DNA of 64,000 nucleotides from Escherichia coli (GCF_001677475.2 NZ_CP015229.1); one strand, 5' to 3'; shown: positions 11,254 to 43,246, numbered from the stretch's first letter. Notes: a model not told the origin generated them from the sequence alone. Translations and numbers: made by a program.

Positions 11254-11505
11254 AAATTGTTTTGTCGCCTGACCTCATGGGGGCAACGGGGCGCTACTAT
11301 AGGGAGTTGGAGTAAAACGGTCAAGAAGAATTTTAATGATAATTATTGTTTGCTCATACTGTAAACAAGTTGTGCAGTATATCTACATCGAGACAAGTTA
11401 TGGATTTATACTTCCAAAGTACTTCATACATATCACAAAATAAAAAGGTCGGCTAAACCGACCTTTTACTCGTTCTTTCTCTTCGCCCATCAGGCGGTAA
11501 AACAA

Positions 11506-11727
<222 letters not shown>

Positions 11728-12008
11728 ATCCTCTGGGGTATCACTACCGTAATTTGAACCGGCAAGATAATGCCGAAGTTCTGTAAATAAGTAAAGATTT
11801 GCGCGCTAAATCGCAACAAACAGGTTCGGCACATTACTCCGAAAACACACGGCTAAGCCGCACCAAAAGCGCAACGTATAAGGGAGCGGTGAGATAAACG
11901 ATGGGCGTTACCTGACGCGAAAAATTCCTTATCGGCAGCGGGGTAATGAGCGTAACCAACTCTGCGACCGCAATTATAACACTCTGGGGAGAAATGTGCC
12001 GAAAACAT

Positions 12009-12713: not shown

Positions 12714-12754
12714 GACCGCAAAACTCCACGCTAGTCGGATCGTTCAATAATAGC

Positions 12755-14476
12755 TTACAAACCCTGCTTAAACTGGTAATAACGCCCCTGTCTGGCAAGC
12801 AGTTCTGCGTGAGTACCTTGCTCAATAATTTGCCCGTTGTCCATCACTATTATTTTCTGGAAACGAGAGAGTCCGCGAAGTCGATGGGTGACCATTAACA
12901 CCGTTTTCTCATGCATCATTTCTGCAAGCAATTCAAGGATCTGACTTTCGGTTGTGGCATCTAAGCCTTCTGTAGGTTCATCCAGCAATACCAGCGGCGC
13001 ATCATGTAACAGCGCACGGGCGATAGCCAGACGGCGCAGTTCACCACCGGAGAGCTGGCGTCCGCCTTCACCTAACCAACTGTTGAGACCTGCATCCTCG
13101 AGCAGCTTCTCCAGACCAACGCGACGTAAGATCTCCGCCAGAGCCTCATCACTACTGCCAGGTGAGGCGAGTAACAGATTATCACGCAGCGTGGCGCTAA
13201 ACAGATGCACTCGCTGTGGCACAACGCTGATGGTCTGTCGTAGAGTCGCTTCATTCAGACTGGCTATGGGGCTATCGTTAAGCAAAATCTCGCCCTGTTG
13301 CGGGTCCCATGCGCGGGTCAGCAGTTGTAACAGTGTTGATTTGCCGCATCCGGTTCGCCCGAGAATCGCTATATGTTCCCCGGCGTTTACCTGAAGAGAA
13401 ATCCCTTTAAGTGCCTGTTGGGATTGCTCCGGATAAGTGAACTGAACATCCCGTAATGTCAGCGAAACGCGATCGGCAACACGAGTTTGGGTATCAGGGA
13501 AGGTGACCTCCGGTTTTTGATCCGTTAAATCAGTGATCCGAACGGCAGAGGCAATGACTTGCCCCAGATGCTGAAATGCACCCGTTACTGGTGCCAGTGC
13601 TTCAAACGCGGCTAACGCGCAGAAGACAAACAGGGCAATTAACGCGCCGGGTTGAGCATTGCCGCCAACGCCGCCAGACGCCATCCACAGCATCAGGATC
13701 ACCGCTAACGCGCCAATGAGCAGCATTATCGCTTGCGACAATGCGGTTAGTTCAGATTGACGGCGTTGCGCTTCCAGCCATTGAATTTCTGTATTCTCTA
13801 GTTGCGTGCGATAACGATCGCTGGCACCAAAAATGGTCAGCTCAGCTTGCCCTTGCAGCCAGGCCGTCAGTTGTTGGCGATACTGCCCGCGAAGATGAGT
13901 CAGATTTTGCCCGGTGCTTTTTCCCGCACGATAAAACAGCGGTGGCATCAGGAAAAGCGTCAGTAACATAATGCCGCCCAGCGTAAAGGCGAGGGTGAAA
14001 TCAAGGAAACTTAACCCGACTGTCACCACCATAATCACCACAAAAGCGCCCACCAGCGGCGAAATAACGCGCAGGTAAAGATGATCGAGCGTATCAACAT
14101 CCGCCACCACGCGGTTGAGCAATTCGCCCTGACGATAGCGCGCCAGTCCGGCAGGGGAGAGGGGTAGCAATTTGCTGAAGGTGTAAATGCGCAGATGCTG
14201 CAACACGCGGAAAGTCGCGTCGTGACTTACCAGACGTTCAAAATAACGCCCGGCAGTACGGGTGATTGCTGCGCCACGCACGCCCGCAGCGGGTAGCATG
14301 TAGTTGAAGCTGTACAGTCCGGCAACCCCCGCAATCGCTGAGGCGGAGAGGAACCAGCCCGAAAGTGTCAACAGACCGATACTGGCGAGCAGCGTGACAA
14401 TTGCCAGCACGATACCAAGACTTAACATCCATTTATGACGTTTATACAGTGCCAGATAGGGTAGCAAAGCGCGCAT
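12755..14476 (-). CDS. cydC: Glutathione/cysteine ABC exporter CydC (cytochrome bd assembly)
   Basis: 573-aa ORF. N-terminal six-helix transmembrane domain plus ABC ATPase (Walker A GRTGCGKST, signature LSGGELRR, Walker B LLLDEPTEGLD). Confidence 0.95.
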   Translation of the reverse strand: MRALLPYLALYKRHKWMLSLGIVLAIVTLLASIGLLTLSGWFLSASAIAGVAGLYSFNYMLPAAGVRGAAITRTAGRYFERLVSHDATFRVLQHLRIYTFSKLLPLSPAGLARYRQGELLNRVVADVDTLDHLYLRVISPLVGAFVVIMVVTVGLSFLDFTLAFTLGGIMLLTLFLMPPLFYRAGKSTGQNLTHLRGQYRQQLTAWLQGQAELTIFGASDRYRTQLENTEIQWLEAQRRQSELTALSQAIMLLIGALAVILMLWMASGGVGGNAQPGALIALFVFCALAAFEALAPVTGAFQHLGQVIASAVRITDLTDQKPEVTFPDTQTRVADRVSLTLRDVQFTYPEQSQQALKGISLQVNAGEHIAILGRTGCGKSTLLQLLTRAWDPQQGEILLNDSPIASLNEATLRQTISVVPQRVHLFSATLRDNLLLASPGSSDEALAEILRRVGLEKLLEDAGLNSWLGEGGRQLSGGELRRLAIARALLHDAPLVLLDEPTEGLDATTESQILELLAEMMHEKTVLMVTHRLRGLSRFQKIIVMDNGQIIEQGTHAELLARQGRYYQFKQGL

Positions 14477-16243
14477 TTAAATCTCCTCCTGACGATGGGC
14501 CAGTAATGTGGCGAATGGGCCACCAGCCACACTTAATTCCGCGTAACGTCCTTGCTCAATAATCCGGCCATCCTGCATAACCCAAATGACATCCCAGTCA
14601 GCAAGATCTTCTAACTGGTGGGTGACCATTAACGTTGTCTGGCGCAGAGAGGCGGCATTCAGCGCCTCCATTACGCGCTGTTCACTGTGAGCATCAAGGC
14701 TGGCAGCGGGTTCATCCAACAGTAATAGCGAGCAGGGATTCAGTAACGCACGGGCCACCGCCACGCGCTGCGCCTGCCCCACGGAAAGGCGGGCAGCCTG
14801 GTCGCCAACAGGCGTATCAACGCCTTGTGGCAGGAGCGGTAGAAACTCACTGACCCAGGCGTTATCCAGCGCTGTTTGTAACTCGTGTTCGCTGGCATCA
14901 GGTCGTGCCAGTAGTACGTTATCCCGTAGTGTTGCTGCCGGTAATTGTGGGTTTTGCCCAACCCAGGAGAGATGTTTACGCCATGATTCCGGTGATAAAT
15001 CGCGTAATTCTATCCCGTTGATTCGTAGCGATCCCTGATATGAGAGAAAACCAGAAAGCGCGTTCAACAGTGAACTTTTACCTGAACCGCTGCGACCAAC
15101 CAACACCGCACGTTGGCCAGCTGGCAAAGTAAAGTTCAGCGGTCCGGCCAGCGTTTTACCTTCTGGTGATGTAATAAACAGCTCCTCGGCTTCAATGGTC
15201 ACCGGATCGGTCGATGCTAATTCCGCCTCACCACGCTGCGGATGGGCAAGCGGGGTTTCCATAAACGTTTTCAAACTGTCAGCTGCACCAACAGCCTGGG
15301 CTTTAGCATGATAAAACGTACCGAGATCGCGTAATGGCTGGAAAAACTCCGGCGCAAGGATCAGGGCCAGAAAACCCGCAGCCAGCGTCACGCCAGTATC
15401 GTAGTGACCAAAATCCAGCTCGCCGAGATAGGAAAAACCAAAGTAGACCGCCACCAGAGCAATTGACAGCGAGGTAAAAAATTCGAGAATGCCGGAGGAT
15501 AAAAACGCCAGCCGCAGCACTTCCATTGTCCGTTGGCGGAAATCTTCCGAAGCAGAACGAATACTTTCAATTTCAGCTTCACCACGACCAAAAATACGCA
15601 ATGTTTCCATGCCGCGCAGGCGATCGAGAAAATGCCCACTTAAGCGAGCAAGAGCGAGAAAGTTGCGTCGGTTAGCATCGGCAGCCCCCATTCCAACCAG
15701 CGCCATAAATAACGGAATTAGCGGTGCAGTGCCCAGTAGAATCAGCGCTGCAGCCCAGTTAGAGGGGAAGATAGCCACCACAATCAGCAACGGCACCGAC
15801 ACTGCCAGCGCCATTTGCGGCAGGTAGCGTGCATAGTAATCATGCATATCGTCAATTTGCTCGAGTACCAGCGTCGCCCAGCTCCCCGCCGGTTTACCCT
15901 GAATCCACGCTGGCCCTGCTTGTTGCAGACGGTCGAGAACCTGACGGCGGATGGCAAAGCGGATATGCTGCCCGGCGTGATAACCCACCCGTTCGCGTAA
16001 CCAGACCACCCATGCGCGCAGTACAAAGGTCAGAACCAGTAACGTAAAGGGAAGCAGCAGAGCTTCACGGGGAATATTCTCCATAATCATATGTTGCAGA
16101 ATTCGCGCCATGAACCAGGCCTGGGCAATGATCAATATGCCGCTCACAAAGCCCAGCAGACGAGAAATATTCAGCCAACGTTGGGAGATGACGCTTTGCT
16201 GTTTTAACCAGCGGGTTAACTCTTTTTGACGGGATTTATTCAT
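14477..16243 (-). CDS. cydD: Glutathione/cysteine ABC exporter CydD (cytochrome bd assembly)
   Basis: 588-aa ORF directly upstream of and abutting cydC. Walker [10 protein letters not shown], signature LSVGQAQR, Walker B LLLLDEPAASLD. Confidence 0.95.
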   Translation of the reverse strand: MNKSRQKELTRWLKQQSVISQRWLNISRLLGFVSGILIIAQAWFMARILQHMIMENIPREALLLPFTLLVLTFVLRAWVVWLRERVGYHAGQHIRFAIRRQVLDRLQQAGPAWIQGKPAGSWATLVLEQIDDMHDYYARYLPQMALAVSVPLLIVVAIFPSNWAAALILLGTAPLIPLFMALVGMGAADANRRNFLALARLSGHFLDRLRGMETLRIFGRGEAEIESIRSASEDFRQRTMEVLRLAFLSSGILEFFTSLSIALVAVYFGFSYLGELDFGHYDTGVTLAAGFLALILAPEFFQPLRDLGTFYHAKAQAVGAADSLKTFMETPLAHPQRGEAELASTDPVTIEAEELFITSPEGKTLAGPLNFTLPAGQRAVLVGRSGSGKSSLLNALSGFLSYQGSLRINGIELRDLSPESWRKHLSWVGQNPQLPAATLRDNVLLARPDASEHELQTALDNAWVSEFLPLLPQGVDTPVGDQAARLSVGQAQRVAVARALLNPCSLLLLDEPAASLDAHSEQRVMEALNAASLRQTTLMVTHQLEDLADWDVIWVMQDGRIIEQGRYAELSVAGGPFATLLAHRQEEI

Positions 16244-16300
16244 TGCACGCTTAGCAGGTGAGTTATCAGAATTATTTGCAGAGCAATGTTACAACGAGGA

Positions 16301-16337
16301 AAAAATAAAGGCGACCCATAGTCGCATGGTGTCGCCT
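16301..16337 (-). terminator. Putative intrinsic terminator downstream of trxB
   Basis: Strong hairpin ggcgacccat-agtcgc-atggtgtcgcc preceded on the plus strand by an A-run (a U-run on the minus transcript), beyond the trxB stop. Confidence 0.55.
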
Positions 16338-16365
16338 TCTTTACTTTTGTTACTGATTTGTAAAA

Positions 16366-17448
<1,083 letters not shown>

Positions 17449-17874
17449 TCAAATTCTCCCGTCATTATCACCTCTGCTACTTAAATTTCCCGCTTTATAA
17501 GCCGATTAAATGATGAATAAACGCCCCTGGTAATGAATATCTGGCATGTTGTACTAAAAATCGATGTTTTGCTTTGACAATCCCCTGGTGTTTTGCGAAA
17601 ACATTCGAGGAAGAAAAAAACAGTATTCTTATATGCGCATAACCATGCATGTAAATACCATGTTTACCGTGCTAGTGAAATCTACGTATGGCGTGGACAG
17701 ACGCCATTCGTGATGTCGATAGCTGCCACAAGGCAACGGTCTTCTCACCGTAGACCCAGGCATTGCGCGCCGTGAATCTTCATGATTTCGGTCTATCGTG
17801 ACGGGTAGCGACTCTGAACAGTGATGTTTCAGGGTCAGACAGGAGTAGGGAAGGAATACAGAGAGACAATAATA

Positions 17875-18369
17875 ATGGTAGATAGCAAGAAGCGCCCTGG
17901 CAAAGATCTCGACCGTATCGATCGTAACATTCTTAATGAGTTGCAAAAGGATGGGCGTATTTCTAACGTCGAGCTTTCTAAACGTGTGGGACTTTCCCCA
18001 ACGCCGTGCCTTGAGCGTGTGCGTCGGCTGGAAAGACAAGGGTTTATTCAGGGCTATACGGCGCTGCTGAACCCCCATTATCTGGATGCATCACTTCTGG
18101 TATTCGTTGAGATTACTCTGAATCGTGGCGCACCGGATGTGTTTGAACAATTCAATACCGCTGTACAAAAACTTGAAGAAATTCAGGAGTGTCATTTAGT
18201 ATCCGGTGATTTCGACTACCTGTTGAAAACACGCGTGCCGGATATGTCAGCTTACCGTAAGTTGCTGGGGGAAACCCTGCTGCGTCTGCCTGGCGTCAAT
18301 GACACACGGACATACGTTGTTATGGAAGAAGTCAAGCAGAGTAATCGTCTGGTTATTAAGACGCGCTAA
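17875..18369 (+). CDS. lrp: Leucine-responsive regulatory protein Lrp (AsnC family)
   Basis: ORF 17821..18369. Start taken at MVDSKKRPGKDLDRIDRNILNELQKDGRISNVELSKRVGLSP (164 aa); HTH followed by a RAM domain. Confidence 0.95.
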   Translation: MVDSKKRPGKDLDRIDRNILNELQKDGRISNVELSKRVGLSPTPCLERVRRLERQGFIQGYTALLNPHYLDASLLVFVEITLNRGAPDVFEQFNTAVQKLEEIQECHLVSGDFDYLLKTRVPDMSAYRKLLGETLLRLPGVNDTRTYVVMEEVKQSNRLVIKTR

Positions 18370-18503
18370 CACGGAACAGGTGCAAAATCGGCGTATTTTG
18401 ATTACACTCCTGTTAATCCATACAGCAACAGTACTGGGGTAACCTGGTACTGTTGTCCGTTTTAGCATCGGGCAGGAAAAGCCTGTAACCTGGAGAGCCT
18501 TTC

Positions 18504-21500
18504 TTGAGCCAGGAATACACTGAAGACAAAGAAGTCACATTGACAAAGTTAAGTAGCGGCCGCCGCCTTCTGGAGGCGTTGCTGATCCTTATTGTCCTGT
18601 TTGCCGTCTGGTTGATGGCTGCCTTACTAAGCTTTAACCCTTCGGACCCCAGCTGGTCGCAAACGGCCTGGCATGAACCTATCCATAATTTAGGTGGGAT
18701 GCCCGGTGCGTGGTTGGCAGATACGCTGTTCTTTATTTTTGGCGTGATGGCTTACACCATTCCCGTCATTATTGTCGGCGGTTGTTGGTTTGCCTGGCGT
18801 CATCAGTCCAGCGACGAATACATTGATTATTTTGCCGTTTCGCTACGCATCATTGGCGTTTTGGCGCTCATCCTTACCTCCTGTGGTCTGGCGGCAATCA
18901 ACGCTGATGATATCTGGTATTTTGCCTCCGGTGGCGTCATTGGCAGCTTACTAAGTACTACGCTACAACCACTGCTACACAGTAGCGGGGGAACTATTGC
19001 GCTGCTCTGCGTTTGGGCTGCGGGCCTGACGCTGTTCACCGGTTGGTCATGGGTGACCATTGCTGAAAAACTCGGCGGCTGGATTTTAAACATTCTCACC
19101 TTCGCCAGTAATCGTACCCGTCGCGATGATACCTGGGTCGATGAAGATGAATATGAAGATGACGAAGAGTATGAAGATGAAAACCACGGCAAACAGCATG
19201 AAACACGCCGTGCCCGTATTCTTCGCGGCGCGCTAGCGCGTCGTAAACGGTTGGCGGAAAAATTCATTAATCCGATGGGGCGGCAAACAGACGCTGCGTT
19301 GTTCTCCGGTAAGCGGATGGATGATGAAGAAGAGATTACCTACACTGCACGCGGTGTGGCTGCCGACCCGGACGACGTCCTATTTTCGGGCAATCGTGCA
19401 ACGCAGCCAGAATATGACGAATACGATCCATTATTAAACGGTGCGCCAATTACCGAACCTGTCGCTGTAGCAGCTGCTGCTACCACGGCGACACAAAGCT
19501 GGGCTGCGCCGGTTGAACCTGTGACTCAGACGCCGCCTGTTGCCTCTGTTGATGTTCCACCTTCGCAACCTACAGTAGCCTGGCAGCCTGTACCGGGTCC
19601 ACAAACGGGAGAGCCGGTTATTGCTCCTGCACCGGAAGGTTACCCACAGCAGTCACAATATGCGCAGCCTGCAGTGCAATATAATGAGCCGCTGCAACAA
19701 CCAGTACAGCCGCAGCAGCCGTATTATGCACCTGCAGCTGAACAACCTGCGCAACAGCCGTATTATGCCCCTGCGCCAGAACAACCGGTGGCAGGTAACG
19801 CCTGGCAAGCCGAAGAGCAGCAATCCACTTTTGCTCCACAGTCTACATACCAGACTGAGCAAACTTATCAGCAGCCAGCCGCTCAGGAGCCGTTGTACCA
19901 ACAGCAGCAACCCGTTGAACAGCACTCTGTTGTGGAGCCTGAGCCCGTTGTAGAAGAGACAAAACCCGCGCGTCCGCCGCTTTACTATTTTGAAGAAGTG
20001 GAAGAGAAGCGTGCCCGTGAACGTGAACAACTTGCGGCCTGGTATCAACCGATTCCTGAACCGGTTAAAGAACCAGAACCGATCAAATCTTCGCTGAAAG
20101 CACCTTCTGTTGAAGCAGTATCTCCAGTGGAAGCCGCTGCCGCTGTTTCCCCTTTGGCATCTGGCGTGAAAAAAGCGACACTGGCGACGGGGGCTGCTGC
20201 AACCGTTGCCGCGCCAGTCTTCAGTCTGGCAAATAGCGCTGGACCGCGTCCGCAGGTCAAAGAGGGGATTGGCCCGCAGTTGCCACGACCGAAACGTATC
20301 CGCGTGCCAACTCGTCGTGAATTGGCGTCTTACGGTATTAAGCTGCCCTCACAGCGTGCGGCGGAAGAAAAAGCCCGTGAAGCCCAGCGCAATCAGTATG
20401 ATTCTGGCGATCAGTATAACGATGATGAAATCGATGCGATGCAGCAGGATGAACTGGCACGTCAGTTCGCCCAGACACAGCAGCAACGCTATGGCGAACA
20501 GTATCAACATGATGTGCCCGTAAACGCAGAAGATGCAGATGCTGCGGCAGAGGCTGAACTGGCTCGTCAGTTTGCGCAAACTCAACAACAACGTTATTCC
20601 GGCGAACAACCGGCTGGGGCGAATCCGTTCTCGCTGGATGATTTTGAATTTTCGCCAATGAAAGCGTTGTTGGATGATGGTCCACACGAACCGCTGTTTA
20701 CGCCAATTGTTGAACCTGTACAGCAGCCGCAACAACCGGTAGCGCCACAGCCGCAGTATCAGCAGCCACAACAGCCAGTTGCGCCACAGCCGCAGGATAC
20801 CCTGCTTCATCCGCTGTTGATGCGTAATGGCGACAGCCGTCCGTTGCATAAACCGACGACGCCGCTGCCTTCTCTGGATTTGCTGACACCGCCGCCGAGC
20901 GAAGTGGAGCCGGTAGATACCTTTGCGCTTGAACAAATGGCGCGCCTGGTGGAAGCGCGTCTGGCTGATTTCCGTATTAAAGCCGATGTCGTCAATTACT
21001 CTCCGGGGCCGGTTATCACTCGCTTTGAATTGAACCTGGCACCGGGCGTAAAAGCGGCGCGCATTTCTAATTTGTCACGGGACCTGGCCCGTTCACTTTC
21101 TACGGTGGCGGTGCGTGTCGTTGAAGTTATTCCTGGCAAACCCTATGTAGGTCTGGAGTTACCGAATAAAAAACGACAAACCGTTTATCTGCGCGAAGTT
21201 TTGGATAACGCCAAATTCCGCGATAATCCGTCGCCATTAACCGTGGTGCTGGGTAAAGATATCGCCGGTGAGCCGGTGGTTGCCGATCTGGCGAAAATGC
21301 CGCACTTGTTGGTTGCGGGGACTACCGGTTCCGGTAAGTCTGTCGGTGTGAACGCGATGATCCTGAGCATGCTTTATAAAGCACAGCCAGAAGATGTGCG
21401 TTTCATCATGATCGACCCGAAAATGCTGGAGCTTTCGGTTTATGAAGGCATTCCGCACCTGTTAACGGAAGTCGTTACTGATATGAAAGATGCCGCCAAC

Positions 21501-22337
21501 GCGCTGCGCTGGTGTGTTAACGAGATGGAACGTCGGTATAAACTGATGTCTGCGCTGGGTGTGCGTAATCTGGCGGGTTATAACGAAAAAATTGCTGAAG
21601 CCGATCGCATGATGCGTCCGATTCCAGACCCGTACTGGAAGCCGGGTGACAGTATGGATGCCCAGCATCCGGTGCTGAAAAAGGAACCGTACATTGTGGT
21701 GTTGGTGGACGAATTTGCCGACCTGATGATGACGGTAGGTAAAAAAGTGGAAGAGCTGATAGCACGTCTGGCACAAAAAGCCCGTGCCGCGGGTATCCAT
21801 CTCGTACTGGCAACTCAGCGTCCATCGGTTGATGTTATTACTGGTCTGATTAAAGCGAATATTCCGACCCGTATCGCCTTTACCGTATCCAGTAAGATTG
21901 ACTCACGTACCATTCTTGATCAGGCTGGCGCGGAATCACTGCTGGGTATGGGGGATATGCTTTACTCTGGGCCGAACTCCACGTTGCCGGTACGTGTTCA
22001 TGGTGCTTTTGTTCGCGATCAGGAAGTTCATGCCGTGGTGCAGGACTGGAAAGCGCGTGGTCGCCCACAGTATGTTGATGGCATCACCTCCGACACTGAA
22101 AGCGAAGGTGGCGCGGGCGGTTTCGATGGTGCTGAAGAACTGGATCCGTTGTTCGATCAGGCGGTGCAGTTTGTTACTGAAAAACGCAAAGCGTCAATTT
22201 CTGGCGTACAGCGTCAGTTCCGCATTGGTTATAACCGTGCAGCGCGTATTATCGAACAGATGGAAGCGCAGGGGATTGTCAGCGAACAGGGGCACAACGG
22301 TAATCGTGAAGTGCTGGCCCCACCGCCGTTTGACTAA
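18504..22337 (+). CDS. ftsK: DNA translocase FtsK, 1277 aa as encoded here
   Basis: TTG start with ggag 9 bp upstream. N-terminal membrane domain, long Pro/Gln-rich linker, C-terminal motor (Walker A GTTGSGKS) and gamma winged-helix domain. See finding on linker length. Confidence 0.95.
19712..19792 (+). repeat. Imperfect tandem coding repeat in the ftsK linker (QQPYYAPA-type units)
   Basis: Two adjacent near-identical units cagccgtattatgcNcctgc...gaacaacc, encoding ...[27 protein letters not shown].... Confidence 0.6.
20728..20796 (+). repeat. Imperfect tandem coding repeat in the ftsK linker (QQPVAPQPQ-type units)
   Basis: Units caacaaccggtagcgccacagccgcag and caacagccagttgcgccacagccgcag, encoding [25 protein letters not shown]. 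Confidence 0.6.
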
Positions 22338-26076: not shown

Positions 26077-28520
26077 ATGAAAACGAAAATCCCTGATGCG
26101 GTATTGGCTGCTGAGGTGAGTCGCCGTGGTTTGGTAAAAACGACAGCGATCGGCGGCCTGGCAATGGCCAGCAGCGCATTAACATTACCTTTTAGTCGGA
26201 TTGCGCACGCTGTCGATAGCGCCATTCCAACAAAATCAGACGAAAAGGTTATCTGGAGCGCCTGTACAGTTAACTGTGGTAGTCGCTGCCCGCTACGTAT
26301 GCACGTCGTGGACGGTGAAATCAAATATGTCGAAACGGACAATACCGGCGATGACAATTACGACGGCCTGCACCAGGTTCGCGCCTGTCTGCGTGGGCGT
26401 TCCATGCGTCGCCGTGTCTACAATCCGGACCGGCTGAAATATCCGATGAAACGAGTCGGGGCGCGCGGTGAAGGCAAATTCGAGCGCATTAGCTGGGAAG
26501 AAGCCTACGACATCATCGCGACCAATATGCAGCGCCTGATCAAAGAGTACGGCAACGAGTCTATCTATCTGAACTATGGCACCGGTACGCTGGGCGGCAC
26601 CATGACCCGCTCCTGGCCGCCGGGAAATACCCTGGTCGCGCGCCTGATGAACTGCTGCGGCGGCTATCTGAACCATTACGGCGACTACTCCTCCGCGCAA
26701 ATTGCGGAAGGTCTGAACTATACCTACGGCGGCTGGGCAGATGGTAACAGCCCGTCGGATATCGAAAACAGTAAGCTGGTAGTGCTGTTTGGTAATAACC
26801 CAGGCGAAACGCGAATGAGTGGCGGCGGGGTGACTTATTACCTTGAACAGGCTCGCCAGAAATCTAATGCTCGCATGATCATCATCGATCCGCGCTATAC
26901 CGACACCGGTGCCGGGCGCGAAGATGAGTGGATCCCTATTCGTCCGGGAACAGATGCCGCACTGGTTAACGGTCTGGCGTACGTCATGATCACCGAAAAC
27001 CTGGTGGATCAGGCATTCCTCGATAAATATTGCGTTGGCTACGACGAGAAAACACTGCCAGCCAGTGCGCCGAAAAATGGTCACTATAAAGCTTATATTC
27101 TGGGTGAAGGGCCAGATGGCGTAGCTAAAACGCCGGAATGGGCCTCGCAAATCACCGGTGTTCCGGCAGACAAAATCATCAAACTGGCTCGTGAAATCGG
27201 CAGTACCAAACCGGCGTTTATCAGCCAGGGATGGGGCCCGCAGCGTCACGCTAACGGTGAAATCGCAACCCGTGCTATCTCGATGCTGGCGATTCTGACC
27301 GGTAACGTTGGTATTAATGGAGGGAACAGCGGCGCGCGTGAAGGTTCATACAGCTTACCGTTTGTCCGTATGCCGACCCTCGAAAACCCGATCCAGACCA
27401 GCATTTCTATGTTTATGTGGACCGATGCCATTGAACGTGGCCCGGAAATGACGGCGCTGCGTGATGGTGTGCGCGGGAAAGATAAGCTGGATGTGCCGAT
27501 CAAAATGATCTGGAACTATGCCGGTAACTGCCTGATTAACCAGCATTCTGAAATCAACCGTACCCATGAAATCCTTCAGGATGATAAGAAGTGCGAGCTG
27601 ATTGTGGTTATCGACTGCCACATGACCTCATCGGCGAAATATGCTGACATCCTGCTGCCTGACTGCACCGCTTCCGAACAGATGGACTTTGCACTGGATG
27701 CATCCTGCGGGAATATGTCTTACGTGATTTTCAACGATCAGGTGATTAAACCGCGCTTTGAATGTAAGACCATCTATGAAATGACCAGCGAACTGGCAAA
27801 ACGTCTTGGCGTTGAGCAACAGTTTACTGAAGGCCGTACACAGGAAGAGTGGATGCGGCATCTGTATGCCCAGTCGCGGGAAGCGATTCCTGAACTGCCA
27901 ACGTTTGAAGAGTTCCGCAAGCAGGGGATCTTTAAAAAGCGCGCCCACAAGGGCATCACGTTGCTTATAAAGCCTTCCGTGAAGATCCGCAGGCAAATCC
28001 ACTGACCACGCCATCGGGTAAAATTGAGATTTATTCGCAGGCGCTGGCTGACATTGCCGCTACCTGGGAATTGCCAGAAGGCGACGTGATCGATCCACTG
28101 CCGATCTACACGCCGGGCTTTGAAAGTTATCAGGATCCGCTGAACAAACAGTATCCGCTGCAGCTTACGGGTTTCCACTATAAATCTCGCGTTCACTCAA
28201 CTTACGGCAACGTTGATGTGCTGAAAGCGGCTTGCCGTCAGGAGATGTGGATCAACCCGCTTGATGCGCAAAAACGCGGTATCAACAACGGCGATAAAGT
28301 CAGGATCTTTAACGATCGTGGTGAGGTTCATATTGAGGCGAAAGTGACGCCACGAATGATGCCGGGCGTGGTCGCACTGGGTGAAGGTGCCTGGTATGAC
28401 CCAGATGCAAAACGTGTCGATAAGGGCGGTTGTATCAACGTACTGACCACTCAACGTCCGTCTCCTCTCGCTAAGGGGAATCCGTCACATACAAACCTTG
28501 TTCAGGTTGAAAAGGTGTAA
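26077..28520 (+). pseudogene. dmsA: dmsA, anaerobic DMSO reductase catalytic subunit, with an interrupted reading frame (true pseudogene or sequencing indel)
   Basis: ORF 26077..28005 (642 aa) has the Tat signal (SRRGLVKTTAIGG) and the molybdopterin-oxidoreductase N-terminus, then ends ...FKKRAHKGITLLIKPSVKIRRQIH*. The +1 frame is open from about 27936 to 28520 and encodes the expected C-terminal part (...PQGHHVAYKAFREDPQANPLTTPSGKIEIYSQ...NLVQVEKV), ending 10 bp before dmsB. This implies a 1-nt indel near 27940..27950. Confidence 0.6.
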
Positions 28521-28530: not shown

Positions 28531-29148
28531 ATGACAACCCAGTATGGATTTTTTATTGATTCCAGCCGTTGCACCGGTTGCAAAACCTGCGAGCTGGCTT
28601 GTAAAGACTACAAAGATTTGACGCCAGAAGTCAGTTTCCGCCGCATTTATGAATATGCTGGCGGCGACTGGCAGGAAGATAACGGTGTCTGGCACCAGAA
28701 CGTGTTTGCCTACTATCTGTCGATTTCATGTAACCACTGCGAAGATCCGGCTTGTACTAAAGTCTGCCCGAGCGGTGCGATGCATAAACGTGAAGATGGT
28801 TTTGTTGTGGTCGATGAAGATGTGTGCATTGGCTGCCGTTACTGCCATATGGCTTGCCCGTACGGCGCACCGCAATATAACGAAACGAAAGGCCATATGA
28901 CCAAATGCGATGGTTGTTATGACCGTGTTGCGGAGGGGAAAAAACCGATCTGCGTAGAATCCTGCCCGCTGCGGGCGCTGGATTTCGGCCCTATCGACGA
29001 GCTGCGTAAAAAACATGGCGATTTGGCGGCTGTTGCGCCGTTGCCGCGAGCTCACTTTACCAAACCGAATATTGTGATCAAACCCAATGCCAACAGCCGC
29101 CCGACCGGGGATACCACTGGCTACCTGGCAAACCCGAAGGAGGTGTGA
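28531..29148 (+). CDS. dmsB: DMSO reductase iron-sulfur subunit DmsB
   Basis: 205-aa ORF with four Cys clusters of 4Fe-4S ferredoxin type (CTGCKTCELAC, CNHCEDPACTKVC, CIGCRYCHMAC, CDGC...C). Confidence 0.95.
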   Translation: MTTQYGFFIDSSRCTGCKTCELACKDYKDLTPEVSFRRIYEYAGGDWQEDNGVWHQNVFAYYLSISCNHCEDPACTKVCPSGAMHKREDGFVVVDEDVCIGCRYCHMACPYGAPQYNETKGHMTKCDGCYDRVAEGKKPICVESCPLRALDFGPIDELRKKHGDLAAVAPLPRAHFTKPNIVIKPNANSRPTGDTTGYLANPKEV

Positions 29149-30048: not shown

Positions 30049-30675
30049 TTATTTCTGCTTCGTTAATGTGTCATAACTGGTCATCAAATTACGATAATCA
30101 GGAATGTGGTTAGAGAACAACGTCGCCAGTCCTTCAATATCATTACGCCAGTCACGGTGCAGCTCGCAAGCCACGCCGAACCATGTCATCAATTGCGCAC
30201 CAGCTTGCGACATGCGATCCCACGCCGAATGCCGGGTAATTTCATTAAAGGTCCCTGATGCATCAGTCACGACAAATACATCAAACCCCTCTTCAATGGC
30301 TGAAAGCGCCGGGAATGCCACGCAAACTTCGGTTACCACACCGGCAATAATTAACTGTTTTTTACCTGTCGCTTTGACAGCTTTTACAAAATCTTCGTTA
30401 TCCCAGGCGTTAATATTTCCCGGGCGAGCAATGTAAGGTGCATCGGGAAACTGTGCTTTCAGTTCTGGAACTAATGGGCCGTTAGGACCGGTTTCAAAAC
30501 TGGTGGTAAGAATAGTAGGTAAGTTGAAATACTTAGCCAGGTCGCCCAGCGCCAGCACGTTATTTTTAAACTTATCGGGTTCGATATCCCGTACAAGGGA
30601 AAGTAAACCAGCCTGGTGATCAACAAGCAAAACGGCAGCATCATTTTTATCAAGACGAACATACGGTTTGGTCAT
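30049..30675 (-). CDS. ycaC: Isochorismatase-family hydrolase YcaC
   Basis: 208-aa ORF MTKPYVRLDKNDAAVLLVDHQAGL...; cysteine hydrolase fold signature (VAGVVTEVCV). Confidence 0.9.
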   Translation of the reverse strand: MTKPYVRLDKNDAAVLLVDHQAGLLSLVRDIEPDKFKNNVLALGDLAKYFNLPTILTTSFETGPNGPLVPELKAQFPDAPYIARPGNINAWDNEDFVKAVKATGKKQLIIAGVVTEVCVAFPALSAIEEGFDVFVVTDASGTFNEITRHSAWDRMSQAGAQLMTWFGVACELHRDWRNDIEGLATLFSNHIPDYRNLMTSYDTLTKQK

Positions 30676-32347: not shown

Positions 32348-33778
32348 ATGGCTGGGAATGTTCAGGAAAAACAGCTGCGATGGTACAACATTGCGCTGAT
32401 GTCTTTTATCACTGTCTGGGGTTTTGGCAACGTTGTTAATAACTACGCCAACCAGGGGCTGGTGGTTGTTTTTTCATGGGTGTTTATCTTTGCGCTCTAT
32501 TTCACACCTTATGCGCTAATTGTTGGCCAGTTAGGCTCGACCTTCAAAGATGGGAAGGGCGGGGTCAGTACCTGGATTAAACACACGATGGGACCCGGAC
32601 TGGCTTACCTCGCCGCGTGGACCTACTGGGTAGTGCATATTCCCTATCTGGCACAAAAACCCCAGGCAATACTGATTGCGCTCGGTTGGGCGATGAAAGG
32701 CGACGGTTCGCTAATCAAAGAATATTCAGTCGTAGCGTTACAGGGGTTAACGCTGGTGCTGTTTATCTTCTTTATGTGGGTTGCTTCACGCGGTATGAAA
32801 TCGCTGAAAATCGTCGGTTCTGTGGCAGGGATTGCGATGTTTGTTATGTCGCTCCTGTATGTGGCGATGGCGGTAACCGCGCCTGCGATTACTGAAGTGC
32901 ATATTGCGACCACAAACATTACCTGGGAAACGTTCATTCCTCATATCGACTTTACCTACATTACCACTATTTCAATGCTGGTTTTCGCGGTTGGCGGAGC
33001 AGAGAAGATTTCTCCTTACGTTAATCAAACGCGCAACCCAGGAAAAGAATTTCCAAAAGGGATGTTATGCCTGGCGGTGATGGTTGCGGTTTGTGCCATT
33101 CTGGGCTCACTGGCGATGGGGATGATGTTTGACTCGCGTAATATCCCGGATGACTTAATGACTAACGGTCAGTATTACGCCTTTCAGAAGCTGGGCGAGT
33201 ATTACAACATGGGTAATACTTTAATGGTGATTTATGCCATTGCGAATACCCTGGGACAAGTAGCTGCGCTGGTATTCTCGATTGATGCACCGCTTAAAGT
33301 GTTATTAGGCGATGCCGACAGCAAATATATTCCAGCAAGTTTATGTCGTACCAACGCTTCTGGTACGCCCGTTAATGGCTATTTTCTGACCCTGGTGCTG
33401 GTGGCGATCCTGATAATGCTACCGACTCTCGGCATTGGTGATATGAACAATCTCTATAAATGGCTGTTGAATCTTAACTCGGTAGTGATGCCGCTGCGTT
33501 ATTTGTGGGTATTTGTTGCGTTTATTGCTGTCGTTCGCCTGGCGCAGAAATATAAACCAGAGTATGTCTTTATTCGTAATAAGCCGATGGCAATGACCGT
33601 CGGGATATGGTGTTTTGCCTTTACCGCTTTTGCATGCCTGACAGGAATTTTCCCTAAAATGGAAGCCTTCATTGCAGAGTGGACATTCCAATTGGCACTG
33701 AACATTACTACGCCATTTGTCCTCGTTGGACTGGGGCTGATATTCCCGCTGCTTGCACGTAAAACGAATACAAAATAG
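32348..33778 (+). CDS. ycaM: APC-family amino-acid/polyamine transporter YcaM
   Basis: ORF 32156..33778. Start taken at MAGNVQEKQLRWYNIALMSF (476 aa), preceded by aagga. Polytopic membrane protein. Confidence 0.88.
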   Translation: MAGNVQEKQLRWYNIALMSFITVWGFGNVVNNYANQGLVVVFSWVFIFALYFTPYALIVGQLGSTFKDGKGGVSTWIKHTMGPGLAYLAAWTYWVVHIPYLAQKPQAILIALGWAMKGDGSLIKEYSVVALQGLTLVLFIFFMWVASRGMKSLKIVGSVAGIAMFVMSLLYVAMAVTAPAITEVHIATTNITWETFIPHIDFTYITTISMLVFAVGGAEKISPYVNQTRNPGKEFPKGMLCLAVMVAVCAILGSLAMGMMFDSRNIPDDLMTNGQYYAFQKLGEYYNMGNTLMVIYAIANTLGQVAALVFSIDAPLKVLLGDADSKYIPASLCRTNASGTPVNGYFLTLVLVAILIMLPTLGIGDMNNLYKWLLNLNSVVMPLRYLWVFVAFIAVVRLAQKYKPEYVFIRNKPMAMTVGIWCFAFTAFACLTGIFPKMEAFIAEWTFQLALNITTPFVLVGLGLIFPLLARKTNTK

Positions 33779-34875: not shown

Positions 34876-37224
34876 ATGTATAGCATTACCGAAAAATTAA
34901 ACTCAAGATTTAACACTGCGGTTATATTAGCTGTTACTGTCTATATTGTCTTGTCATTTATTACCGCAATTGATTTCCATAAAAAAATAGCAGAAAACTC
35001 TGCACAGATTAACCTTATACTCATCAATAACAATTTGAATAATTTTTTTTCTAAAGTTGAAAAAGAGGCTGATGCATTAAAAGATGCAATCTATCTGTTA
35101 CATGATGAAGATGAAATAAAGCGAGCAGTCCTTCATCGCATGAAAAAAATAGACGCGGTTAATTTAGTAGGGATAATGCTCAATAATGGAAAATATCTTA
35201 GCTTTATTCGAACTGAGAATGGGGAGGTAAAATTTCTGGGGCAATCAGAACCCGGTAAACCTTTTATTGGTGACGATGGTGATATCAGCGATAACTACTT
35301 TAATCCGGAATCACGCCCATGGAATAAATTACCGAGGGGGACTTATTCAAAATGGTCACCATGGTATAATTGTTATGGTATTGCCGGAAAAAAATGTTTT
35401 TCGTTTTCACTACGACCATCCGAAGAAGAAAAAAATTCATTTGCTTTGAAGTTAATACATCTGGATGTTGATGAAAAATATTTCAGTAATTTTTTAAATA
35501 AACTGGGTGGTGATTCTGATATTTTATTCATGGAACAAAACAAAAGGATTATGGTGGGTAATGAAAAATCAATGTTACATCTTATTGTCCGTGATTTATC
35601 GGGAAGTTATAACATAAGCAATAATAGTGGCAACTATACAGACAATGTTATCTCACTCCCCTGGCTTCCTGATGTCAGATTCCATTATTTCCACTATCAA
35701 AAATCAGAAGATACAAACATCAATAAATATTTTACACTGATGTTTTTATGTGGCTTGGTTTGTTTCTGTTTATTATGGTATATCGTTGAAAAAATAACAA
35801 GAAAAATCAAAGGTGAATCCAGCAAACTGATAGAACATCTGAAAAAATTAGCTAATTCAGTATATCGCAACGACACAATTGATATTGTGCAAAATGACAG
35901 TGGTGAGATTGTTGAACTCAAAAAGATCATTAATAATATCAGCGATAAATACAAGGAGCGTATGGACCGATTACTTAATCTTGTGTCCTATGAACAAGGA
36001 AGTTGCTTTTATATTAATAAGGCTATTATTGAAACTAATAATAAAACCTATTTGGCAATTGGTATGCTTTGCATCTATGGATTAGAGTTTGTTGAAGCGG
36101 TATATGGAAATCAGAAATTTCATGAGATTTTTAATGATATAAAATCTAAGATATCACAAAAATATTCAAAATATTGTGATATCGTAAAAATCTCAACTGA
36201 AACATACTTGTTGCTATGTCACACTGATTGCGAAGAGTTCATCGAAAAATTATCGGTTTTAAACTTTCCTGAACATATATTTTGCATAAGAAATATATAT
36301 ATCCACAAGATTGCCATTTGCGAAAATTTTTCAGGGGAAAATGTATCGATTTATGAAAGGAAACTGAAACTGGCATTAACAGCTATGCGGGAAAATAAAG
36401 AATCTGAATTTATTTTTTATGATGACATCAAAGTCCATGAACTTGATCAAAAGGTCTGGGTGGCAGGAAATATAAAAAAAGCGATTGCGAGTAATGAGCT
36501 TTATTTAGTATATCAACCGATTGTTGATATGGATAATAATAGGGTTGTAGGCGCAGAGGCGTTATGTCGCTGGTTGTCCTGCGAAAATGGGGTAATACCG
36601 CCATCAATTTTTGTACCTGTTGCTGAAGAAATAGGATTAATTAAAGAACTGGGTGATTTTGTTCTCGAAACAGCTATTAGCGAATTTGGGGTGTTTAGTT
36701 GTGAATATGAGGTTGCTAACGATTTTCTCCTGCATATCAATGTTTCTCCCTGGCAATTAAATGAATTTGACTTCCACACTCGTGTTCTTACTTTAATTAA
36801 TGCATTTGGTGTAAATGTTGAACAAATCTGCCTGGAGATCACCGAATCAGCAGTAAAAGATATAAATGATAGCTTTTACAATAATATAAATATTTTAAAA
36901 GAAAATGGTATCAAGATTTCCCTTGATGATTTCGGAAGTGGATTAGCTGACCTGAAAAAACTTTATAAAGTAAGACCTGATAGCATTAAAATTGATTCAG
37001 AGTTTACCTCTGGTATTTTCGATGAAACTAACAAGGTTGTATATTTTATATCCAATCTTGCTCGTGAAGAAAATATGCCGGTAATAGCTGAAGGTGTTGA
37101 AACTGAAAGTCAGGCTAGAGAGTTGCAAAAATTAGGATTTTCTCATGTTCAGGGATACTTATACCAGAAACCGTTACCGTTTTCAGAATGGCATATAGAC
37201 AACAAACCGAAAAAAAGAAAATAA
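34876..37224 (+). CDS. Membrane-bound c-di-GMP phosphodiesterase: TM, periplasmic sensor domain, TM, cytoplasmic linker region, EAL domain
   Basis: 782 aa. Hydrophobic helices near residues 15-35 and ~285-305. EAL-domain motifs all present: QPIVD, EALCRW, NVSP, LEITES, DDFGSG, KIDSEF, AEGVETE, QGYLY. No GG(D/E)EF signature upstream of the EAL domain. Confidence 0.85.
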   Translation: MYSITEKLNSRFNTAVILAVTVYIVLSFITAIDFHKKIAENSAQINLILINNNLNNFFSKVEKEADALKDAIYLLHDEDEIKRAVLHRMKKIDAVNLVGIMLNNGKYLSFIRTENGEVKFLGQSEPGKPFIGDDGDISDNYFNPESRPWNKLPRGTYSKWSPWYNCYGIAGKKCFSFSLRPSEEEKNSFALKLIHLDVDEKYFSNFLNKLGGDSDILFMEQNKRIMVGNEKSMLHLIVRDLSGSYNISNNSGNYTDNVISLPWLPDVRFHYFHYQKSEDTNINKYFTLMFLCGLVCFCLLWYIVEKITRKIKGESSKLIEHLKKLANSVYRNDTIDIVQNDSGEIVELKKIINNISDKYKERMDRLLNLVSYEQGSCFYINKAIIETNNKTYLAIGMLCIYGLEFVEAVYGNQKFHEIFNDIKSKISQKYSKYCDIVKISTETYLLLCHTDCEEFIEKLSVLNFPEHIFCIRNIYIHKIAICENFSGENVSIYERKLKLALTAMRENKESEFIFYDDIKVHELDQKVWVAGNIKKAIASNELYLVYQPIVDMDNNRVVGAEALCRWLSCENGVIPPSIFVPVAEEIGLIKELGDFVLETAISEFGVFSCEYEVANDFLLHINVSPWQLNEFDFHTRVLTLINAFGVNVEQICLEITESAVKDINDSFYNNINILKENGIKISLDDFGSGLADLKKLYKVRPDSIKIDSEFTSGIFDETNKVVYFISNLAREENMPVIAEGVETESQARELQKLGFSHVQGYLYQKPLPFSEWHIDNKPKKRK

Positions 37225-37228
37225 AGCA

Positions 37229-38569
37229 ATGTTCAAATATAAAAAAAAGGCGGCAGTGATCTGTTTTTTGTATTTTTTGTGCGTCGCTGTAGTAACTTGT
37301 TATTTGTACACCATTCATGTTAAAGGCCGTATAAATTCGGTGAAGGTATCTATTGTAGATAGTGGGCTTGCAATAGCTAATGTTTCTGAGTATCGCCGCT
37401 CAGTATCTAATAATATATTTTATGAACTTGAGGTTTCGCCAGAAGAGTTGTTAAAAAAAATACGCAATAGCTTTGCTGGCTATGAAAACCCTGGATATTT
37501 GTATGATCTCGGTCCTTATATGATTAGCGATGGTAAATGTATCAAAGTCACAACGAAAGGAGATAATTTTTGTGACGACATAGTTTCCTCTATTAGGGTA
37601 ATTAATGAATTTGAAAGAGGCATTATTAGCTTAAAAAATAAGTGCTATGTTTATTATGCTCATCCCATTGCAAAACGTACAAGTTTGATATCAGTGGTAG
37701 ATCCTGAACGTTATTTATCTTTGATAAGAAATCAATCAGGGGAACGAGAAGATATCTATGTATCATTTTATGATATTAATGATAATGAAAAGAAAATCGC
37801 AGGTGATGATTTTTTGATAAATGATGCAGTATTTGAGATGTCAGCTATCACTCTGTCGTATTCTTATCTTCCAGAAATGATGTTTATTGTTGCCTATAAA
37901 AAAAGTAAATATCTATATATATGTGCGTTTTTCGTTTTTGCATCGGCAATATCTGCAGTCATAATGTATGTTTATTATGTTAAATTATTGCGTGATATTA
38001 TAAATAAGGGTAGATTGGAAAAAGAATCTATATTGTCGAATCATCAATATGATTTACGTGGAGAAAATCTATTCTTTAATACGGAAGAGATTAATGCAAT
38101 TCGAGAGATATATGACTTTGGCACTTGTGATGCATTAACCAGGGCTTCTGGTCGCCGGAGTTTTGATAAAGAAATCAAGATACTGAGAAAAAATTTTGGC
38201 TACCTGTGTCTATTTGATGTGGATAAATTTAAAACCATTAATGATAAGTTTGGTCATTTATTTGGTGATGAAGTACTCATCAAACTTGTTAATATCATTA
38301 AAGAAGAGTTACCCCGTCGTGAAGGGGAAATATACCGGTTTGGCGGTGATGAGTTTGCTATTATTTATTATGAGAAAGATAAAAATAAGCTATCAAGAAT
38401 TTTGCACAGAGTTGTTCATTTCGCCATTGGTGGGTTAAATTGTAGTTGCAGTATAGGTGTTGCCAGCACAGATGAGTGCATGAATAACATTGAACGGTTG
38501 AAATTGCTGGCAGATGAACGGTTATATAAAAGTAAGCAAAATGGCCGAGCACAGATAACGTGGTGTTGA
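37229..38569 (+). CDS. Membrane-bound diguanylate cyclase: TM, periplasmic sensor domain, TM, GGDEF domain
   Basis: 446 aa, starting 5 bp after the upstream stop. Two hydrophobic helices flank a ~200-aa periplasmic segment. GGDEF-domain motifs: DALT..RR, LFDVDKFKTINDKFGH, GDEVL, RFGGDEFAIIY, ADERLYKSKQNGR. No RxxD inhibitory site immediately upstream of GGDEF. Confidence 0.85.
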   Translation: MFKYKKKAAVICFLYFLCVAVVTCYLYTIHVKGRINSVKVSIVDSGLAIANVSEYRRSVSNNIFYELEVSPEELLKKIRNSFAGYENPGYLYDLGPYMISDGKCIKVTTKGDNFCDDIVSSIRVINEFERGIISLKNKCYVYYAHPIAKRTSLISVVDPERYLSLIRNQSGEREDIYVSFYDINDNEKKIAGDDFLINDAVFEMSAITLSYSYLPEMMFIVAYKKSKYLYICAFFVFASAISAVIMYVYYVKLLRDIINKGRLEKESILSNHQYDLRGENLFFNTEEINAIREIYDFGTCDALTRASGRRSFDKEIKILRKNFGYLCLFDVDKFKTINDKFGHLFGDEVLIKLVNIIKEELPRREGEIYRFGGDEFAIIYYEKDKNKLSRILHRVVHFAIGGLNCSCSIGVASTDECMNNIERLKLLADERLYKSKQNGRAQITWC

Positions 38570-38653
38570 TATTTTAATTTGCATGGCATTGGTCATCGAT
38601 GTTTACAAAAATCACACAGTTCAAGTTATATTATTAATGAATCGTTAAGTGCA

Positions 38654-40768
38654 ATGCTCATAAAAAATAAAGTAATATTAAACAAAATCCTTTTGGTTGT
38701 TGCTATACTGCTATGTTTTGTTTTTTTATCAATTGTTGAACAGCCCCTTGGATTTTATCAACAAACATTATTTTCAATTATTATTTGTATCGCTGCTATC
38801 TTCCTTAATTTTCTCAAAGGAAGGATAATTACTCTGATTCTAATGGGTGTTGGAATACTCATATCATCCCGATATCTATGGTGGCGTTACTCTTCTTCAG
38901 TAATCCTGGATGAATTTCCAGACTGTTTATTTTCAGTCACGCTATTAGTTGCTGAGACGTATGCATGGTTTGTTTTATTACTTGGTTACTTTCAGGTTTG
39001 CTTCCCGCTGAACCGAGAAAGTATACCCTTACCAGAGAATAAAGAAGAATGGCCCGTTGTTGATATATTAATCCCCACATATAACGAACCCTTTACAGTC
39101 GTTAAGAATACAGTTTATGGTGCGTTGGCCTTAGACTGGCCAACGGATAAATTAAATATCTGGCTCCTTGATGATGGCGCCAGGGACGAGTTCAGGAAAT
39201 TCGCGAACGAGTTAGGTATTTACTATGTCGCAAGAGAAACACATGAACATGCTAAGGCCGGAAATATAAATAATGCGCTTAAAATAGCTAATGGCGAATT
39301 TGTTGCTATTTTCGATTGCGATCATATACCCTCGGTTTCTTTTTTAAAGAAAACGATGGGCTGGTTTATCGCCGATAAAAAATTATCGATGTTGCAAACA
39401 CCACATCATTTTTTTTCCCCCGACCCTTTTGAGCGAAATTTGGGGCAGTTTCGGCAAAAGCCAAATGAAGGACACCTTTTTTATGGGTTAATCCAGAATG
39501 GTACGGATACATGGAATGCTTCATTTTTTTGTGGTTCATGTGCAATCATCCGTAGATCTGCTCTGGATGAGGTTGGAGGCATTGCAGTCGAAACAGTAAC
39601 AGAAGATGCGCATACGTCGTTACGCTTGCATCGTGCAGGTTATAGCTCTGCGTATCTTCGCTATCCTCTGGCTGCCGGGCTAGCCACCGAAACATTGTCT
39701 GCTCATATTGGACAACGGATTCGGTGGGCTCGAGGCATGATTCAAATCTTGCGTATTGACAATCCATTATTGGGCAAGGGGCTGACATTATCACAGCGCC
39801 TTTGCTATCTCAGCAGCATGATGCATTTTTTATCAGGTGTGCCACGCCTGATTTTCTTGTTCGCACCGTTATGTCCTATTTTCTTTTCGGTCAATCTGAT
39901 CGATGCATCAGTTGCAGATATTATGTCTTATGTTTTACCTTATCTATTTGTTATTATTTTAACTAATTCAAGAGTACAAGGTAAATACAGACATTCATTC
40001 TGGAATGAGATTTATGAAATGGTTCTGGCCTGGTATATTACGCTACCAACGCTTGTAGCTTTACTTGCGCCAGCAAAAGGTCGTTTTAACGTTACGGCCA
40101 AAGGGGGACTGATAAAAAATAAGTTTGTTGACTGGCGAATTTCCTATCCCTATCTTATTTTTGCTATTTTAAATGTAATCGGGCTGATAATAGGTGTTAT
40201 TAATGTTTATAGTTTGCAAGGGCATATTGCCATCTTGAATTTGTTTTGTTTAATCTGGTTGTTTTATAACGCAATTATTATTGGCGCAACTTTGGCTGTT
40301 TCTATTGAACAAAAGCAGGTGCGTTTTTCTCCCCGTATTGATGTTTCTTTCAAGGGCGTTATACAACTGGATGATGGACGGCGCTATCCTTGTTCTGTTC
40401 TTGATTTTTCCGAAGGAGGATTAGGTGTAATCCTTGATAATATCTCCGACGTAAAAGATATGCTTAAAGCACAGCAATTGTCTCTTTATCTGGATGATAG
40501 CAACGGGAAATGTGATATTCCGGTAGAAATAGTTCATGCTTACAATAATAAAATTGGTCTGAAGATTATGCCAATGAGTTATGAACAAAGTGTTAATTAT
40601 GTAAGAGCAACGTTTTCTCGTGATTCATTATGGCAAGAGTGGAATAATAAAATTAGACGGGACAATATTCTAAAGAGTTTTTTTGAAATATGTTTCATCT
40701 CTCTGAAAGGTTATTGCAATATGGTTTTTTATATTCTGCGGACACTGAAAAGCAGTTCCAAAAGTTAG
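38654..40768 (+). CDS. BcsA-like family-2 processive beta-glycosyltransferase with C-terminal PilZ domain (c-di-GMP-gated synthase)
   Basis: ORF 38579..40768 begins with TTG; first in-frame ATG is at 38654 (704 aa). Catalytic motifs: DDGARDE, FDCDH, QTPHHFFSPDPFERN, FFCGSCA, TEDAHTSLRLH, QRIRWARG. PilZ motifs RFSPRID and DFSEGGLG. Confidence 0.85.
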   Translation: MLIKNKVILNKILLVVAILLCFVFLSIVEQPLGFYQQTLFSIIICIAAIFLNFLKGRIITLILMGVGILISSRYLWWRYSSSVILDEFPDCLFSVTLLVAETYAWFVLLLGYFQVCFPLNRESIPLPENKEEWPVVDILIPTYNEPFTVVKNTVYGALALDWPTDKLNIWLLDDGARDEFRKFANELGIYYVARETHEHAKAGNINNALKIANGEFVAIFDCDHIPSVSFLKKTMGWFIADKKLSMLQTPHHFFSPDPFERNLGQFRQKPNEGHLFYGLIQNGTDTWNASFFCGSCAIIRRSALDEVGGIAVETVTEDAHTSLRLHRAGYSSAYLRYPLAAGLATETLSAHIGQRIRWARGMIQILRIDNPLLGKGLTLSQRLCYLSSMMHFLSGVPRLIFLFAPLCPIFFSVNLIDASVADIMSYVLPYLFVIILTNSRVQGKYRHSFWNEIYEMVLAWYITLPTLVALLAPAKGRFNVTAKGGLIKNKFVDWRISYPYLIFAILNVIGLIIGVINVYSLQGHIAILNLFCLIWLFYNAIIIGATLAVSIEQKQVRFSPRIDVSFKGVIQLDDGRRYPCSVLDFSEGGLGVILDNISDVKDMLKAQQLSLYLDDSNGKCDIPVEIVHAYNNKIGLKIMPMSYEQSVNYVRATFSRDSLWQEWNNKIRRDNILKSFFEICFISLKGYCNMVFYILRTLKSSSKS

Positions 40769-40833
40769 TTCTAATTTCTGACTGCTAATTAAATATATTG
40801 TTTGTGTTTATTATGGTTGTTGAATTTTTTAAA

Positions 40834-43134: not shown

Positions 43135-43246
43135 TTCATCATCATTTCTATTTTGCGGCTCCATTCTGTCCTGACTTTATACAGGCAGGGAGCTGCGCCC
43201 GTTCTGTTTTTAATAAAAAGTGAGTTAACACCTGATTGAGGCAGGC

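Follow-up and report, generated by a model that had tools for sequence, protein, structure and literature searches.

A very recent frameshift that probably inactivates dmsA, the gene for the catalytic subunit of anaerobic DMSO reductase, in one clone of Escherichia coli

The 64-kb stretch of E. coli DNA analysed here (hereafter, the window) contains a dmsA gene that has, in all probability, suffered a genuine and very recent loss-of-function frameshift. DmsABC is a membrane-bound anaerobic reductase of DMSO and other S- and N-oxides, and DmsA is its molybdo-bis(MGD) catalytic subunit. The gene order serS-dmsA-dmsB-dmsC-ycaC is present in the window and dmsA begins at 26077, the same start as that annotated in the reference genomes. 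Its open reading frame (ORF), which translates as DmsA, ends early, at a TGA codon in positions 28003..28005, as the preliminary description had stated. A second frame is open from position 27936, just 3' of a TAA codon (27933..27935), and encodes the native C-terminal sequence of DmsA up to the native stop codon at 28518..28520, which ends 10 nt 5' of dmsB (start at 28531). The earlier claim that another frame carries the DmsA C-terminus from about 27936 to a point right before dmsB therefore stands, but its '+1' label does not: codons start at 1 mod 3 in the dmsA frame and at 0 mod 3 in its continuation, so that the shift is to the -1 (equivalently, +2) frame. The features of the disrupted gene are as follows.

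26077..28005, plus strand: truncated dmsA ORF of 642 codons (622 native and 20 out-of-frame ones) and TGA
27943..27944, plus strand: deletion junction, one A of codon 623 lost
27943..28002, plus strand: 20 aberrant codons read after the deletion, AHKGITLLIKPSVKIRRQIH
28003..28005, plus strand: premature TGA in the dmsA frame
27945..28520, plus strand: 3' remnant of dmsA in the -1 frame, with native residues 624-814, all of PF01568 and the native stop
28086..28520, plus strand: 144-aa ORF with a GTG start, the gene-caller product of the orphaned C-terminus, containing Molydop_binding only

Alignment with intact dmsA genes from three E. coli strains revealed exactly one gap, an A that is absent between positions 27943 and 27944. 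The lesion is thus a 1-nt deletion that falls inside the interval (27940..27950) where a single-base indel had been predicted. The lost A is position 1868 of the gene, the second base of codon 623 (GAC, Asp). Its context, GCGCG-A-CCCAC in the references and GCGCG|CCCAC in the window, is neither a homopolymer nor a simple repeat; the junction reads GCGCGCCCAC in the deleted allele and GCGCGACCCAC with the A present.

Once the A is restored, the gene encodes exactly the protein WP_000850305.1, found in strains 7/2 and N3. The repaired gene differs from those of the same two strains at 38-43 nucleotides; as the repaired protein is identical nonetheless, all these differences are synonymous. Judging from these comparisons, the gene was under purifying selection until the deletion and has undergone no secondary decay since. 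This lack of decay, together with the existence of a near-identical sister with an intact gene (see below), points to a very recent event within one clone. As for its origin, the deletion perfected a short inverted repeat:

27943..27954, plus strand: inverted repeat GCCC-ACAA-GGGC, also seen as the same hairpin on the minus strand

The ancestral form, GACCC-ACAA-GGGC, has an imperfect left arm. This might hint at a quasipalindrome-templated deletion, although the stem is only 4 bp long.

A single-base indel is the commonest kind of assembly error, and the alternative offered by the preliminary description was a sequencing or assembly error, in which case the real genome would have the A and an intact dmsA. 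Indeed, some of the other dmsA frameshifts in public data look like errors: the assemblies behind two of the loci that we retrieved (L016 and L021) are rich in indels, and a third locus (L020) contains a run of N. The distribution of the deleted allele argues against such an explanation. The exact 642-aa product was found on 13 contigs, the named sources being GCA_018682865.1, GCA_002516285.1, ERR10434813, SRR3929499 and SRR11608754, all of which have the same deleted DNA allele; this allele is also present in GCA_012665465.1. Thus, the identical deletion is found in at least six public accessions (NCBI and Logan assemblies), which are 99.99-100% identical to the window and yet not all alike: position 33672 is either C or T, one of them (L006) has a separate SNP, and two (L005 and L008) have a P2-like prophage. 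The latter is represented by its end (integrase, Cox and HTH repressor), located between serS and dmsA in GCA_002516285.1 and SRR11608754 (positions 1..4784 of L005 and 1..3016 of L008); the junction corresponds to window position 25861, which lies in the serS terminator and precedes the dmsA ATG by 216 nt. Since the prophage is found in some carriers and is absent from the window, the carriers are distinct isolates, and the accessions, at least six in number, appear to be independent, as deduced from their sequence differences rather than from metadata.

Relatives of the window were retrieved through its exact DmsC allele. Near-identical ones (L009, L010, L013 and L014) encode an intact 814-aa DmsA, and the window's dmsC allele is thus also found next to intact dmsA genes. 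One of them, L009 (GCA_019141245.1, with 15 further similar places), is separated from the window by just two differences in 8,864 bp, the A and the SNP at 33672. Of the carriers, L011 combines the deletion with C at 33672, whereas the window and L012 combine it with T; these allele combinations give the order of events as intact gene, deletion and later SNP. The deletion arose in one E. coli clone whose descendants have since diverged by a SNP and prophage gain. In addition, dmsA is the only disrupted gene among the 41 reference genes that could be mapped in the window.

The wider survey gave the same picture. When 701 bases around the lesion were compared with 5,426 complete RefSeq E. coli genomes, matches were obtained in 5,423 of them (in 5,422 over at least 80% of the query), and all the matches listed span 702 bases to the window's 701 and are annotated as intact dmsA. 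As the window is here compared directly with thousands of orthologues, chance plays no part in the difference. A 70-nt probe across the junction, with which an exact carrier would show at least 99% identity, found no genome reaching that value among the 5,004 complete RefSeq genomes that matched it. Ten other loci with broken dmsA all have different lesions, and loss of the A at position 1868 was seen in no other lineage examined, only in this clone. Among these loci, L015, L022 and L023 have premature stops without any indel, L018, L019 and L024 have insertions or rearrangements, and the 642-aa fragments of L016 and L021 stem from deletions of a G at position 1848 and an A at position 1764, respectively; we therefore rejected the idea of a recurrent hotspot or a systematic error. 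We also rejected an assembly error as the source of the deletion: given the independent carriers, the intact near-identical sister, the site outside any homopolymer and the absence of other broken genes, it appears extremely improbable. Of the two possibilities raised at the outset, genuine inactivation is the one favoured by these data.

The same observations bear on the idea of a reversible, phase-variable dmsA switch operating through indels at a contingency repeat. The coexistence of 'on' and 'off' alleles among near-identical isolates is what such a switch would produce. However, the lost base is a lone A between G and C, outside any homopolymer or simple-sequence repeat, all carriers are in one state, and other lineages are invariant at the site. 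The chance that the deletion is such a switch is vanishingly small.

With the A gone from codon 623, the ribosome reads 20 wrong codons up to the premature stop, and the outcome is a protein of 642 aa, made up of 622 native residues and the aberrant tail. This product retains the twin-arginine (Tat) leader (SRRGLV, within residues 1-45 of the translation), the Fe4S4 domain (PF04879, aa 56-116, E = 1.4e-16) and the Molybdopterin domain (PF00384, aa 119-576, E = 4.7e-84). Only the -1 frame, 3' of the premature stop, encodes Molydop_binding (PF01568, E = 1.5e-29), and the C-terminal 191 residues are missing, including the entire molybdopterin-dinucleotide-binding domain. The locus is a dmsA gene by descent and does not encode an intact DmsA. 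The C-terminal domain of DmsA covers and binds the bis-MGD cofactor. We found no E. coli DmsA among the solved structures; the solved DMSO/TMAO reductase homologues align with it up to residue 813, and the lost region is strongly conserved. The loss of PF01568 and the conservation of the missing region suggest that DmsA function has been lost. As the cofactor-binding C-terminal domain is missing, the truncated protein is predicted to be inactive and not exported.

In E. coli, cofactor loading and proofreading by DmsD precede Tat export, and DmsB is exported together with DmsA (PMC12096835). Truncated DmsA would be unable to bind the cofactor or to fold and would presumably fail this DmsD/Tat quality control. 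The remaining two genes of the operon are intact:

28531..29148, plus strand: dmsB, 205 aa, identical to WP_000213098.1
29150..30013, plus strand: dmsC, 287 aa

DmsB would nevertheless be stranded, as its export depends on the Tat leader of DmsA. Furthermore, the premature stop lies 525 nt upstream of dmsB, and this stretch of untranslated mRNA would probably lower dmsBC expression through lost translational coupling and Rho polarity. An internal promoter for dmsBC was considered and rejected: a scan of positions 27900-28600 detected no promoter-like site between the stop codon and dmsB. The sole terminator-like match, on the minus strand at 27955..27942, is the small hairpin mentioned above and does not exceed what shuffled sequences yield.

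Gene callers report both the 642-aa fragment and the 144-aa C-terminal ORF that starts at the GTG in position 28086, and a weak Shine-Dalgarno (SD)-like GAAGG lies a few nucleotides 5' of this GTG, so one could envisage an active two-piece DmsA assembled from the two products. Such a split enzyme would lack native residues 623-670, which are found in neither piece, and would carry 20 foreign residues, while its C-terminal piece would have no Tat leader. Moreover, the 144-aa ORF turns up among the calls for many unrelated broken alleles and looks like a by-product of gene calling, and the gene is one base away from its intact ancestor, with no sign of adaptation. The likelihood of a split enzyme is negligible, and the 144-aa ORF (28086..28520) is probably not a functional product.

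A more elaborate alternative is that ribosomes bypass the lesion by -1 slippage. The motif in question is:

27933..27939, plus strand: U_AAA_AAG, in which the dmsA-frame codons AAA (27934-36) and AAG (27937-39) form an A_AAG tetramer

The tetramer (27936-27939) lies 4 nt upstream of the deletion and falls within 27936..28002, the only zone in which a single -1 slip restores the frame. A tRNA-Lys slip at this site would yield a protein of native length (814 aa), DmsA(R622A, D623R), with just these two substitutions and GIFKKARPQGHHVAYK as the expected junction peptide; residues 622-623 belong to a stretch that is variable across the wider DMSO/TMAO reductase family. If such a product had physiologically useful activity, dmsA would be a leaky pseudo-pseudogene and the clone would carry a down-tuned rather than dead allele that supports some S-/N-oxide reduction. 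No tetramer in E. coli is more prone to shifting than A_AA.G (PMC4066793), and proteomics of Salmonella has detected low-level translation past many 1-nt deletions, so that pseudogenes of this kind often give downstream peptides (PMC9122581). However, tetramers without a stimulator shift at near-background levels (0.147% vs 0.112%), and it takes a strong pseudoknot to bring A_AA.G to 5.6% (PMC4066793). Here, the downstream fold is unremarkable (27940-28010, z = -0.79, with 39 of 200 shuffles folding equally well or better) and consists of nothing but the 4-bp hairpin 3 nt past the motif; this inverted repeat (27943..27954) is too weak to act as a frameshift stimulator. In dnaX and prfB, an SD spacing of about 10-14 nt favours -1 shifts and a short spacing favours +1 shifts; the SD-like AGGGGA is just 4 nt upstream of the motif, which is unfavourable for the former. 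The heptamer itself is imperfect, as its first base is U instead of A, and only its A_AAG tetramer fits the slippery X_XXY_YYZ pattern. The motif is also ancestral, being identical in the intact references, and has not been selected after the lesion. The R-D pair is kept in close orthologues of DmsA, as in the KQRDPEGHH of P0029. Programmed frameshifting was rejected on account of the imperfect motif, the lack of a stimulator and the fact that the two-frame arrangement is not conserved, the relatives encoding dmsA as a single ORF. Transcriptional slippage, which needs runs of about 7-9 or more, was also rejected, as the A5 run at 27934-27938 was judged too short. Traces of full-length DmsA are possible, but a physiologically useful leak is quite unlikely, and so is the rescue of DmsA function by it.

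Several other features of the window and its relatives deserve mention. In strain RMDEC465, the closest match to the dmsA segment among complete genomes, ycaC (L001, 5450..6076) is annotated as a pseudogene with an internal stop; it is intact in the window (30049..30675). The tRNA-Ser(GGA) gene (11166..11253, minus strand) contains a run of seven G (plus strand) at the site of an indel (11175), compared to six in strain N3 (L003). As seven is presumably the normal state, that of K-12 serW, it is probably N3 and not the window that is the odd one. The ftsK gene (18504..22337, plus strand) is intact; its product has 1277 aa in the window and in L007, 1329 aa in L004 and 1368 aa in N3, a variation confined to the repeat-rich linker that reflects either true polymorphism or short-read collapse of repeats. 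Between ycaM (32348..33778) and pflA (46489..47229, minus strand) there is a five-gene accessory locus (34876..46354, plus strand):

34876-37224, plus strand: CHASE9-EAL phosphodiesterase
37229-38569, plus strand: GAPES2-GGDEF cyclase
38654-40768, plus strand: BcsA-like GT2 and PilZ synthase
40834-43134, plus strand: BcsB-like protein
43247-46354, plus strand: BcsC-like TPR/outer-membrane protein

This locus appears to encode a second, c-di-GMP-controlled cellulose-synthase-like system. At least 80% of the segment 20000-44000 of the window is matched in only 5 of the 5,426 complete E. coli genomes. For the two nearest of these, identity is about 96.5% over the whole query and about 94-96% within the five genes; for the remaining three it is about 91.7%. 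The best complete RefSeq E. coli genomes show about 98.2% identity over the left 20 kb (1..20000) and 97.6% over the right 20 kb (44000..64000), where part of the divergent bcsC-like gene lies. Some individual genes diverge notably from the reference used, such as ycaO (92.7% identity), clpA (95.9%) and ycaL (95.8%). The lineage is poorly represented among complete genomes, and some of its genes look recombinant. The 64-kb window contains none of the MLST genes.

What the deletion would mean for the cell follows from what is known of DmsABC and its redundancy. E. coli lacking dmsA does not respire DMSO anaerobically, but its stress and adherence phenotypes are mild and partly masked because there are six other S-/N-oxide reductases (PMC12096835). 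The strain studied here is accordingly predicted to be unable to respire DMSO anaerobically, while TMAO respiration and part of S-/N-oxide repair would persist via TorA, TorZ, YnfEFGH, BisC and MsrP. Since other reductases cover TMAO, the discriminating growth substrate would be DMSO and not TMAO. An altered response to hypochlorite or altered adherence to host cells is possible, given the work on dmsA deletions in uropathogenic E. coli (UPEC; PMC12096835). In genome annotation, the proper entry for the locus is a frameshifted dmsA pseudogene, neither 'corrected' nor split into two genes. The deletion also provides a clean sub-clone marker, as sister isolates differ by essentially that base alone. 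Fragments of dmsA are also found in Shigella sonnei entries (proteins P0005 and P0016 among the broken-dmsA records), which suggests, along with the lesions described above, that loss of DmsABC is recurrent in some E. coli and Shigella lineages. These independent public lesions agree with the idea that some of these lineages can do without DmsABC, with redundant S-/N-oxide reductases as the reason, and the significance of one more loss of dmsA is modest. A dmsA missense SNP reported in Salmonella (PMC6137255) is not relevant to this deletion.

Comparison with known systems helps place this allele. As in the laboratory dmsA deletions of K-12 and of the UPEC strains EC958 and CFT073 (Zhong et al., 2025; PMC12096835), it is the catalytic subunit that is lost; the difference is that here the frameshift is a natural point mutation, which spares three quarters of the protein and keeps dmsBC intact, and the phenotype is a prediction. 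With the -1 frameshift sites of dnaX and insertion sequences (A_AAA_AAG plus an SD and a stem-loop or pseudoknot), the window shares AAA-AAG lysine codons before the shift point and an open overlap, whereas the first base of its heptamer is U, there is no stimulatory structure, and the expected efficiency is near background. The pseudo-pseudogenes of Salmonella Typhi and Paratyphi A (Feng et al., 2022; PMC9122581) likewise include 1-nt deletions in genes whose mRNA, as here, is probably still made; in Salmonella, translation past the lesions has been detected, whereas in dmsA it is a possibility deduced from the DNA. The closest parallel is with the lineage-specific frameshift pseudogenes of enterobacteria, in which, as here, a small lesion disrupts a conserved gene with a single ORF and the neighbouring genes remain intact. 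Thus, this is the well-known dmsA gene with an ordinary lineage-specific frameshift. Compared to the other public dmsA lesions (stops, other 1-nt deletions and rearrangements), it is distinguished by the loss of the A at position 1868 in a single clone and, compared to ordinary pseudogenes, by its extreme youth, with no second lesion, no amino-acid change and an intact sister just one SNP away.
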